Source: Lama guanicoe (taxonomy: Eukaryota). From it: a DNA stretch of 64,000 nt. This document shows, piece by piece, positions 70 through 58,215 of this stretch. Position 1 is the first letter of the stretch, and each line of letters opens with the position of its first letter. The stretch covers positions 1,699,408 through 1,763,407 of the forward strand of contig MU054831.1 of the NCBI GenBank assembly GCA_013239625.1, given 5' to 3'. The notes below the pieces were generated by a model. That model made no database searches. It had not been told where the DNA came from and saw only the letters and a list, made by a program, of their open reading frames with translations. Both the position numbers and the translations under genes were made by a program.

Positions 70-570
70 TGAGTCAGCCAATGGGGGGGCGGGCACTGGC
101 TCCACGCACTGGGAAGCCAGGGGCTCCCTCTGTGGCCACCTTCCTCTTGTCTCCGCGGCCAAGGCCTCTTTCCAGGTGCGGGGAAGTTAACCGCAGGCCC
201 CGACAACTTCTCTGTCCCTCACGTTTGAATGCGGACTGAGAGGAAGAGATTCGGGGAGGAGCCGGGTTAACTGGAGAGTTGTGGGCGGGCGCGCGGGTCC
301 CGGGCTGTGCCACCTCTGCGCTGCGCCTGGCAGCCCAAGGGCACTGAGCCCGAGCCTGGTGGCGACCCCGCGTATCATCTGCTTGTTATGTAACGTGACA
401 ACAGGGGTGTGAAATAGAAACCAGATGTCGGGGCGGAGCCGGCAATTCCTCACCAGTGAGTGCTGCGGGCACCGCTCCGTCTTCTCCTCCGGCCCAGGCC
501 CCGTGCCCTGGGAGGACTGGCTCTGGAGGGGCCCCTGGGCTCTAAACAAAGGCCTTGGCGGAAGGTAAAG
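70..570 (+). promoter_or_regulatory. Promoter-like cluster with a downstream splice donor
   Basis: TGAGTCAGC (70-78), CCAAT (78-82) and GGGGCGGGC (86-94) in a tight cluster. Second GC box near 430, CpG-rich sequence, and donor AAG|gtaaag at 564/565. Confidence 0.4.
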
Positions 571-1437
571 TCCAAACTGTGTGGTTAACTCTTGAGAACC
601 TGTGGAGGGCTTTCTGTGCACAGGTCTGTAGCCGCAGCACGTCGTCCTGGGAGATGTGGGTGGTGACTTCTCCTGAGAGTCCACAAGGCCAGGGGCTGAG
701 CCGTGGCCCCGCGCACTCTTGGGCTGGGAGCGGAGGGGATCTGAGCTGCAGCTGGTGAGGGGCTGGAGCAGTGGCGGGGAGCAGACCTCAGGGGGAGAGG
801 TGGCCGCTGGTCGACAGGGGCTCCCCGGGCCTGGGGACTCGGGGCCAACGCTGGATGTCTGCAGGGGCAGCCCCTGCCCAGCCTGGGTCCTTCCCGACAC
901 CCGGAGGGCTCACTGGCCACCTCCGCCTGGGCTGCACTGTGGACACGGATCTTTGCCCTTTTGAAGTAGGAGACACTAACTCACCTCAGTCAGGAGTGCA
1001 GCCCCCCCGCTGGGAGTGGCGGCAGGTTTCACTCTCACCTAAACCCGAGAGTACGTCGCTGGTGCTTTGTGATCTTCCAGAGAGAGCGGCAGACTCCACC
1101 CTTAGCTAGGAAGACCCCAGAAACAGAAGCCTGGGCCCTTGGCTGCGACCCCTCATGCCTGGGGCTCTTGGAAGCCTCCTGGGAGTGTCACATTCTTATC
1201 AGCAAGGTCTGTGCTAACTGCCGCCCAGGTTGCGGTGTCACCCGGTGTCCCCAGGGAACCGACCCAGTGAGGCACGGGCGTTTCGGCTCCTTCTTGTCCT
1301 GAGCACGGACGCCCCTCTGGCTTCCTGCTTTCTTGTCCGTGAAGTGACAGCTGGTGTTCCGGGAGTGCCTTCTGCTGGGCTGTGCTGTGTGTCAGTGGAG
1401 CTTCTTACGTGACCCTCAGAGCCCCTGGGAGTGGACA

Positions 1438-1872
1438 CAGGCGACCCTCGTCTTAGGAGCGTTCTACTTGAGACCTCCGACTTCGCGACGTGGGAGAATG
1501 ACACGCTCGGTAGAAATCGCACTTTGGATTTTGGGTGTTTCCCTGCTCCCGGGCTGCGGCGTGGGTCTGACACCCTCTCGTCATGCTGGGCACCAGGTGA
1601 ACAAGTGACCCAGCGACCACATTCTGCTTTTCGCTCTCAGTCCTGCAGTCAGTAAGTCACACCAGAGTCGACACCGCATTGTCACACAGGCTTCGTGTCA
1701 GACGACTGTGTCCGATGGGGCGAACGTGTGTTCTCAGCACCTTTAGGGGAGGAGGCTTAGCTGTCGTGTTCAGTAGGTAAGGTTAGGGTTAAATGCATTT
1801 TCGACCGACAGTATTTTCAGCGTAGGAAGGGTTTATCAGTACGTAACCACGTTGTAAGTCTCAGAAGAGCTG
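1438..1872. mobile_element. MER47/Tigger5-family non-autonomous DNA transposon (TcMar-Tigger)
   Basis: Matches recalled consensus segments: gtagaaatcgcacttt...tgttctcagcac...ttaaatgcattttcgac...gggtttatcagtacgtaacc...gtaagtc. Degenerate CAG...CTG termini. Confidence 0.8.
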
Positions 1873-57100: not shown

Positions 57101-58143
57101 CCGCCCCCCTTCCTCGGGAGGGTCTGCAGGTCTCAGGAGACACTTCTGTGTCTCCTCAGAGTCCGGGCTTTTGTTCTGGCATTTGCACATCTCCAGAGAT
57201 CCGCGGGGGTCACGGAGCCCTGCATTCGAAGGCCGCAGGAGGTGGTGCCCGTTCTTGGTAAAAAGCAGGTTTTATCACAGTCAGCAGACTTGCTCTTGCT
57301 TGTTTCTGTCACGATTTGCAAGTCTGCTGGGGGCTGTGGCTGCTCTGGGAAAGCAGTGCTTTCTCCTTAAAATCAGTAACGACGTCTGTGATGACGCGCT
57401 TGTCACCGCAGGCGTTCACACCAGTCGTTAGAAGCTAATTTTACACCAAAGTGTGATTCCTGGAAGTTTTGTCAGCATTTCCTTTCTTGTTCGTTGGAGA
57501 GAGTATGGACGCTCCCCGGCGGTCTCAAGGCAGCCGGCGCCGGGTTCGGGGGGGAGTGGGTTTCGATTCTGCCTCTGCCGTCAGGACAGTCGCGGGTGGA
57601 CTTGGGAGGAGCGTGCCCAAGGTGCAGGTGCCCGGCCAGGTGTCTTCCCGTGAGAGCGGGTTTGTGTGTCTTCGTTTCCTTGACTGGCCCGCAAGCAGCC
57701 TCACCGACAGCTGCTTCCGACGGGGCCTCCCCCGGCTGGGTTTCTGGGGCAGCCCGGCCAGTGGGCCGAGTCTGGAAGAGGCCAGCAGCTCCTCTGCTTT
57801 TACTGCCTTCGTGCTGTGGTCCCTACAGAAAGGCTGACTCCTGCCAAATGCAGGTGGGGGGAAGGTGGTCGCCAAACAGAGAAGAATCTCGACGGCTGGA
57901 CAGATGCCCGCAGGCCGGAAACCGGTGGTCACCCTGTTTGCGACCAGACTGTCCGGGTTATTGTGCAGAAGGTCCTCCATCTTTGGTTCCATCAATGGAA
58001 ATAACCCCTGGTGGATTACAGGGGAGAAGGACCCACGCGCGTCCGCTGTTTGCAGGGACTTGCTCCTTGCAGACTCCGAGTGTAAAGTGTTTTAATTGAA
58101 ATGCGAGCAGTTTCTGAAGCCAAATGCTTTCTCTGTCCTCCAG

Positions 58144-58215
58144 ATGGACTTTCTGGCCGGGACCAGCCAGTGGAGCTGCTAAACCCTGCCCGCGTGAACC
58201 ACATGCCCAGCACGG
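58144..58215 (+). CDS. HDAC4: HDAC4 coding exon (exon 3 in human numbering; residues about 8-32), 72 nt, phase 1 at both ends
   Basis: Acceptor tgctttctctgtcctccag| and donor CGG|gtaagt. Translation (G)AT-GGA-CTT... gives [24 protein letters not shown](V), matching the HDAC4 N-terminus [34 protein letters not shown] as I recall it. Confidence 0.97.

Follow-up and report, generated by a model that had tools for sequence, protein, structure and literature searches.

Alternative 5' exons in intron 2 of camelid HDAC4 are probably ATG-free leaders rather than interchangeable N-termini

Background

That HDAC4 has multiple first exons is already catalogued. The present analysis concerns a 64,000-nucleotide (nt) stretch of the guanaco (Lama guanicoe) genome (assembly GCA_013239625.1, contig MU054831.1, positions 1,699,408 to 1,763,407 of the forward strand), hereafter the window, which holds part of intron 2 of camelid HDAC4 together with exon 3. 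An earlier note on this DNA had read eight + strand splice donors of the intron as the ends of alternative first exons that join the exon 3 acceptor at position 58144 and supply either exchangeable N-termini or leaders that force a later start. First exons of human HDAC4 were included in the 2009 study of Wakamatsu et al. Its Table 3 lists FLJ51157 (testis) and FLJ51174, FLJ51177 and FLJ59806 (immune) as tissue-specific variable first exons of the gene (PMC2780955). These complementary DNAs (cDNAs) and human RefSeq isoforms 5, 6 and 7 (NP_001422923.1, NP_001422925.1, NP_001422927.1) come from the same gene and follow the same principle, a start at Met 28 or a tiny new N-terminus, and they bear out the expectation that part of the system had been catalogued in human. 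In mouse TCL1 leukaemia, intragenic Hdac4 starts are reported to rise, without positions being given for them (PMC9359700). Our literature search, run mostly over papers outside subscription and without supplements, turned up none that deals specifically with promoters in HDAC4 intron 2; PMC8495978 has HDAC4 only in a reference.

Mouse Hdac7, which encodes a class IIa histone deacetylase, has P1 and P2 promoters and a translated 7-residue upstream open reading frame (ORF) (PMC7187271). HDAC4 would resemble it in having a 5' end that gives either a full N-terminus or a short upstream ORF (uORF) followed by a later start. However, the short ORF of Hdac7 uses the main ATG and needs a retained 57-nt intron, whereas that of HDAC4 would begin with an out-of-frame AUG at the first base of the common exon, exposed by the choice of leader. 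Internal ORFs in a shifted frame that are uncovered when an alternative 5' end is used have been described as a class (PMC11526972), and HDAC4 would be like its members in that a frameshifted internal AUG becomes the first one when the start codon is bypassed. Since the HDAC4 ORF has only 12 codons, it would be a regulatory uORF rather than a microprotein, unlike that class; the text of PMC11526972 does not name HDAC4.

In the UGT1A, GCNT2 and protocadherin clusters many first exons are joined to constant exons, as in HDAC4, but there (PMC1885805, PMC3325998) the first exons are duplicated, large and coding, whereas the HDAC4 leaders are mutually unrelated and, in this species, non-coding. HDAC4 intron 2 is not an array of the UGT1A or protocadherin type, its exons being dissimilar and not conserved as coding sequence. 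The leaders of NR3C1 and SHBG lie upstream of the ATG exon; unlike them, the HDAC4 leaders lie downstream of it and therefore also trim 27 residues. Otherwise the arrangement is alike, with several unrelated leaders on one acceptor that alter expression and translation and not domains (PMC13026340, PMC2973947).

Results and Discussion

Conserved exon ends in intron 2

At least four loci in the intron (564, 26664/26834, 34882 and 48330) have counterparts that splice to exon 3 in other mammals, and in guanaco, judging from sequence comparison, these are probably ATG-free leaders served by intronic promoters and not coding N-termini. The gene is identified as camelid HDAC4 by exon 4, the next coding exon downstream, which is 100% identical to Camelus and Vicugna HDAC4 and carries a CtBP-binding PMDLR motif; the exon numbers follow those of human HDAC4. 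Intron 2 is 94,338 nt long, and the canonical ATG exon, which contributes MSSQSHP plus 1 nt as the earlier note had stated, ends 36,195 bases upstream of the window.

Homology searches (the best 120 matches listed in each) and cluster look-ups (at most 15 members each) gave a sample of 483 proteins. The exon 3 peptide was present in 307 of these, 258 with the canonical start and 49, curated human isoform 6 among them, with another N-terminus. A permissive tblastn search with the longer alternative N-termini matched HDAC4 intron 2. Back-translated profiles of 26 distinct alternative peptides, anchored at the donor, were compared with 303 donors on the + strand and 225 on the - strand of the whole intron. 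Peptides shorter than 5 residues (dog, hyena, human isoform 6), one shark and one partial opossum peptide and the canonical starts were dropped, and shuffle tests covered 9 of the 26 peptides. Six peptides were placed at five donors, all of them within the window (564, 26664, 26834, 34882 and 48330; Table 1), and an amino-acid-level version of the test agreed for all of these except 34882. The best - strand score over all 26 peptides was 18.2 bits.

The highest score was obtained for exon A, where the horse peptide P0210 aligned at 507-563, in phase to donor 564, with 46.8 bits (0 of 100 shuffles, best - strand score 9.6). Past the junction P0210 is identical to horse HDAC4 (P0270) at 1077 of 1077 residues, and since its whole frame of 1,106 residues fits into an assembled contig no longer than 8,185 nt, it derives from a spliced transcript. 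In guanaco the horse frame is stopped at 543-545, six codons before the donor, and there is no in-frame ATG. The Myotis lucifugus peptide was placed at 26664 with 36.5 bits (0 of 60 shuffles, best - strand score 11.5); here the bat frame is shifted out of phase by one base and the bat ATG is absent. The red deer peptide P0125 reached 20.7 bits at 26834 (0 of 60 shuffles), where the deer frame is shifted and without an in-frame ATG. Exon B is used in two orders, bats and deer, each with its own donor and its own frame. Both pangolin peptides, P0026 and P0127, were placed at 34882 (25.0 and 25.7 bits, 0 of 60 shuffles each); exon C has a frameshift and a stop here and no ATG in 300 nt. Against exon C, the amino-acid-level alignment preferred a weak donor upstream of the window; 34882 came third with one pangolin peptide and was not in the top three with the other. 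Exon D is the weakest of the five mappings: the fishing cat peptide P0089 gave 18.7 bits at 48330 (0 of 300 shuffles, maximum 17.5), barely over the - strand maximum, and no ATG is found here within 150 nt.

No in-frame ATG was found in the 300 nt examined before any of the five donors, and apart from a three-codon ORF before 26834 all five are ATG-free over at least the last 139 bases. The donors score 5.7-8.5, against 10.4 for the true, canonical donor on the same scale. The exons are not paralogous copies of one another: when the 200 nt before 12 donors were compared, the best pair scored 22-26, no more than random pairs (95th percentile 23, 99th percentile 27). Several unrelated 5' exons on one acceptor are found, by orthology to the transcript models of other mammals at five donors; as far as orthology and annotation indicate, HDAC4 would belong with the multi-promoter genes that have unrelated leaders and a shared start.

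Table 1. Features of the window, with positions counted from its first base
Feature	Position	Strand	Remarks
HDAC4 exon 3 (second coding exon)	58144..58215	+	72 nt, phase 1 at both ends; common acceptor for upstream exons
12-codon out-of-frame ORF	58144..58182	+	exon 3 opens with its AUG (G at +4); its end lies 20 nt upstream of Met 28
In-frame ATG of MPST (Met 28)	58203..58205	+	weak context (C at -3 and +4); annotated short-isoform start in many mammals
Exon A, donor 564 (named in the earlier note)	477..564	+	counterpart of a 29-residue horse HDAC4 N-terminus
Exon B, proximal donor 26664 (named)	26540..26664	+	counterpart of Myotis lucifugus N-terminus (5 RefSeq proteins)
Exon B extended, donor 26834 (not named)	26634..26834	+	counterpart of red deer N-terminus
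Exon C, donor 34882 (not named)	34754..34882	+	counterpart of pangolin N-termini (two Manis species)
Probable exon D, donor 48330 (not named)	48300..48330	+	counterpart of a 10-residue fishing cat N-terminus
Donor 32419 (named)	32293..32419	+	42 open codons (ATGs 32320, 32353, 32371); present, unsupported
Donor 50292 (named)	50118..50292	+	58 open codons (ATG 50178); present, unsupported
Donor 11108 (named)	11078..11108	+	10-codon ATG frame; present, unsupported
Donor 8928 (named)	8926..8934	+	consensus-strength; present, no peptide match
Donor 43334 (named)	43332..43340	+	present, no peptide match
Donor 50656 (named)	50654..50662	+	consensus-strength; present, faint likeness to an 8-residue bonobo N-terminus

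The mustelid, fur seal, harbour seal and mink peptides and four others had no site among the intron donors. Placements of the bonobo peptide at 21484 (14 of 300 shuffles reached its score) and of the Hipposideros peptide at 30202 (4 of 150 shuffles) were not accepted, nor was that of the 5-residue ground squirrel peptide at a donor 8,962 bases before the window, a borderline case (1 of 300 shuffles). The likeness of 50656 to the bonobo N-terminus was dismissed as noise, since the site ranked third in the amino-acid-level alignment and outside the top three in the back-translated one.

Exon A could also be an internal exon, given an acceptor-like site 67 nt upstream of its donor. Before it, at 385-439, lie a D-box-like PAR-bZIP/NFIL3 site (385), an IRF-like site (411) and a GC box (430), of which types 2, 10 and 26, respectively, occur in 58 kb. 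This cluster is a plausible compact promoter, chosen after the fact.

Probable leaders and the start at Met 28

The exon ends and GT donors are conserved where the horse, bat, deer, pangolin and cat models splice, and at all five donors the reading frame of the other species is broken or without its ATG in guanaco. Exon ends that were kept while frames were lost argue for leaders that force a later start, at MPST, and not for a swappable N-terminus. Transcription would start within the intron, the canonical ATG exon would be skipped and the leader would be spliced to 58144. According to the scanning rules and the annotation in relatives, ribosomes would pass the 12-codon ORF, or reinitiate after it, and start at Met 28. 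The product would be HDAC4 minus its first 27 residues, keeping the CtBP-binding motif, the glutamine-rich helix and the MEF2 site. The purpose of the leaders would be to set where and how much HDAC4 is made, and the lineage-specific N-terminal peptides would likely be by-products of a chance ATG in a leader.

Exon 3 or exon 4 could be placed in 395 proteins, and 30 of these start at Met 28. Human isoforms 5 and 7, both curated, are among them, as are models from pig, cattle, horse, cat, bats, marmot and opossum, so that such a start is annotated from human to opossum. In several cases one Met-28 protein has 3-4 RefSeq accessions (donkey X8, Rhinolophus sinicus X5, Saccopteryx X8), which is expected if different leaders give one product. 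The suggestion of leaders that force a later start fits, with five ATG-free exon ends and annotated Met-28 proteins. The wider idea of a multi-promoter array held in part: the intron does carry alternative 5' exons that are spliced to the counterpart of 58144 elsewhere, and two of the eight named donors are among them, but six named donors are without support and three supported ones had not been named.

Several points weigh against this interpretation. Accessions that share one protein may differ elsewhere than at the 5' end, a Met-28 protein can also result when exon 2 is skipped or when a model lacks its 5' end, and the canonical start is found in all four camelid RefSeq proteins of the sample (P0002, P0004, P0005, P0179). 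Most of the mapped proteins are predicted RefSeq models (XP_), and the mapping was made from back-translated peptides in place of DNA from those species. Exons that are non-coding in all species sampled escape the peptide test, which makes "background" a matter of likelihood only for the six other named donors. No supported exon lies in a CpG-island-like window, and as start sites were not located, the exons could be internal 5' exons. Finally, the table in PMC2780955 is without positions for the four human exons, which are thus not tied to the camelid donors.

What is added to the catalogue is a map of five orthologous donors over Laurasiatherian mammals in which exon ends are kept and frames are not. 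As the frames are not kept, the long N-termini given in RefSeq to "isoform X1" probably arose in annotation as by-products of leaders. Bone, muscle and brain are sensitive to the dosage of HDAC4, and tissue-dependent intronic starts would therefore matter for the reading of deletions and non-coding variants in intron 2.

The eight proposed donors and rival explanations

Each of the eight donors named in the earlier note is the last base before a GT, on the + strand and at the position given for it; the long HDAC4-phase frames before 32419 and 50292 and the short ATG frame before 11108 are present as described (Table 1), and 564, 8928, 26664, 43334 and 50656 are without an in-frame ATG. None of the eight lies inside a repeat in a self-comparison of 244 kb or within a CpG-island-like window, and the flanks of 32419 and of 50292/50656 match only themselves in the genome, a self-match being no proof of rarity. 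The set shows no excess. On an approximate donor matrix, 60 donors on the + strand and 49 on the - strand reached the score of the weakest named one, as compared with 60-66 (standard deviation 7-10) in 30 Markov shuffles at each of three orders, and no + strand excess appeared at higher score cut-offs either. An ATG frame in phase 1 stands before 12 of the 61 + strand donors; the two wrong phases give 11 and 20 of 61, and the - strand gives 7, 11 and 10 of 49. In-phase ATG frames longer than those of 32419 and 50292 precede the unnamed donors 7154, 22302, 7040 and 27661 (143, 125, 105 and 46 residues). The eight donors as a set are the expected yield of a GC-rich 58-kb stretch and are not above chance; 564 and 26664, on the strength of their peptide alignments, are so individually. 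The longest in-phase ATG frame of the region, at 6726-7154, ends at the unnamed donor 7154; it is in the chance range for its GC content and has no protein matches.

These counts bear on the proposal that real first exons lie before most of the eight donors and that the two long frames give functional alternative N-termini, which would make the region a swappable module. Any phase-1 exon preserves the frame, 49 of the 307 exon 3 proteins do carry a non-canonical N-terminus, and two of the eight donors are real in relatives, a modest enrichment (the chance of at least two of three supported strong donors among 8 named of 60 is 0.044, post hoc, and 0.013 among 203 weaker donors). However, the frames at 32419 and 50292 are no commoner than in wrong phases or on the wrong strand and match none of the 269 HDAC4-family N-termini tested, the frames of the real exons are not kept between orders at any of the five donors, and the 200 nt before the donors are no more similar than random pairs. 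We therefore regard the swappable module as very unlikely, and the part of the earlier note that foresaw exchangeable N-termini was not upheld. None of the 26 peptides had its best site at one of the six other named donors, and most of these donors are likely background matches; since the test sees only exons with an in-frame ATG in some sampled species, they could still be pure leaders. That all sites arose by chance, the cross-species matches being alignment noise or annotation artefacts, is hardly credible. It would agree with donor and frame counts at chance and with the trial of 26 peptides against 303 donors, but the 46.8 and 36.5 bits at 564 and 26664 stand against a - strand maximum of 18.2, each in phase to a GT, and for these two sites the explanation is refuted at the level of orthology.

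The conserved sites might instead be low-level by-products, in which transcripts from enhancer-derived or cryptic starts meet a nearby donor and are spliced to exon 3 without a selected role and the DNA is conserved as an enhancer. This would account for the lack of CpG islands at the supported exons, for their middling donors and for the occurrence of each peptide in only one or two lineages. The five donor positions, on the other hand, have been kept over about 70-80 million years of divergence between these mammals, and donor 564 is used in the full-length horse contig. Intragenic cryptic promoters of Hdac4 are reported to be up-regulated in mouse leukaemia (PMC9359700), but three of the human cDNAs are immune-specific by counts of 5' expressed sequence tags (PMC2780955). 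On balance, an origin of the sites as by-products is rather unlikely, and leaders that lead to a start at Met 28 are preferred.

An out-of-frame reading frame at the start of exon 3

The AUG at 58144 is internal in the canonical messenger RNA (mRNA) and is the first AUG in any ATG-free leader mRNA. Its -3 base is the third-last base of the upstream exon, which is A at 564 and G at 34882 (strong), T at 26664 and C at 26834 and 48330 (weak). As AUG context at -3 governs ribosome capture in scanning, the choice of leader would affect both the yield of HDAC4 and how many ribosomes leak through to the next in-frame Met, located within the PMDLR motif. A splice-built Kozak switch is conceivable, in which the choice of promoter would set capture by the 12-codon uORF and so tune both the amount of HDAC4 and the use of a downstream start in the CtBP-binding motif, thereby uncoupling CtBP; we consider it doubtful. 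The AUG is forced by conserved Asp-Gly codons, and its presence is therefore no sign of selection. In 307 of 307 proteins the Leu-Leu pair is followed by N, T or S, as a kept uORF stop would allow. Our literature search found no paper that links HDAC4 with a uORF, a Kozak context and alternative first exons, and the junction-made uORF, which is cheap to test, is among the useful additions of this work.

Other alignments and sites in the intron

An N-terminus of the form MLSxS(P/T)D, which recurs in pig, warthog, peccary and horseshoe bats, was rejected as a conserved exon, since its best fit was the intron end directly before exon 3. The ATG concerned (58124) falls in the acceptor's pyrimidine tract (58124-58143), where in guanaco it is 20 nt away from exon 3 and not in frame with it, and this N-terminus points to transcripts that would start in, or retain, the intron end. 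The long N-terminus of the porpoise model P0178 aligns at 44851-45185 (E 8e-16) and at 56149-56262 (E 0.006), both beside CpG-rich windows; the frames of both stretches are broken here, and no good donor was found for them. They may reflect an error of gene prediction over conserved DNA, or else represent two further leader loci. Upstream of the window, the donkey alternative N-terminus P0281 aligns in intron 2 about 30,300-30,420 bases before it (E 8e-4), with no convincing donor, and the N-terminus of the chimpanzee model P0300 about 77,100-77,230 bases before it (E 9e-9), in the largest upstream CpG-rich block, which is probably the main promoter region.

Position 32419, with a pyrimidine tract and AG/GT, was tried as a recursive splice site and rejected for its low acceptor score. 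Among the AG/GT sites of the intron, only 46923 combines a good pyrimidine tract with a good donor (crude scores 7.7 and 9.1; none on the - strand); it is a candidate recursive splice site in this 94-kb intron. An A+T-rich island (GC 0.37-0.47) at 38001-42000 stands out within an intron of 58% GC. On the - strand, 4771-4904 resembles a tRNA-derived short interspersed element (SINE), with an A-rich tail and a second copy inside the 244 kb; an Rfam scan found no microRNA or other RNA gene, and its sole tRNA-like match (4837-4891) falls in this SINE-like repeat. In human, an antisense intronic RNA, meloe, has been reported in an HDAC4 intron (PMC5312342).

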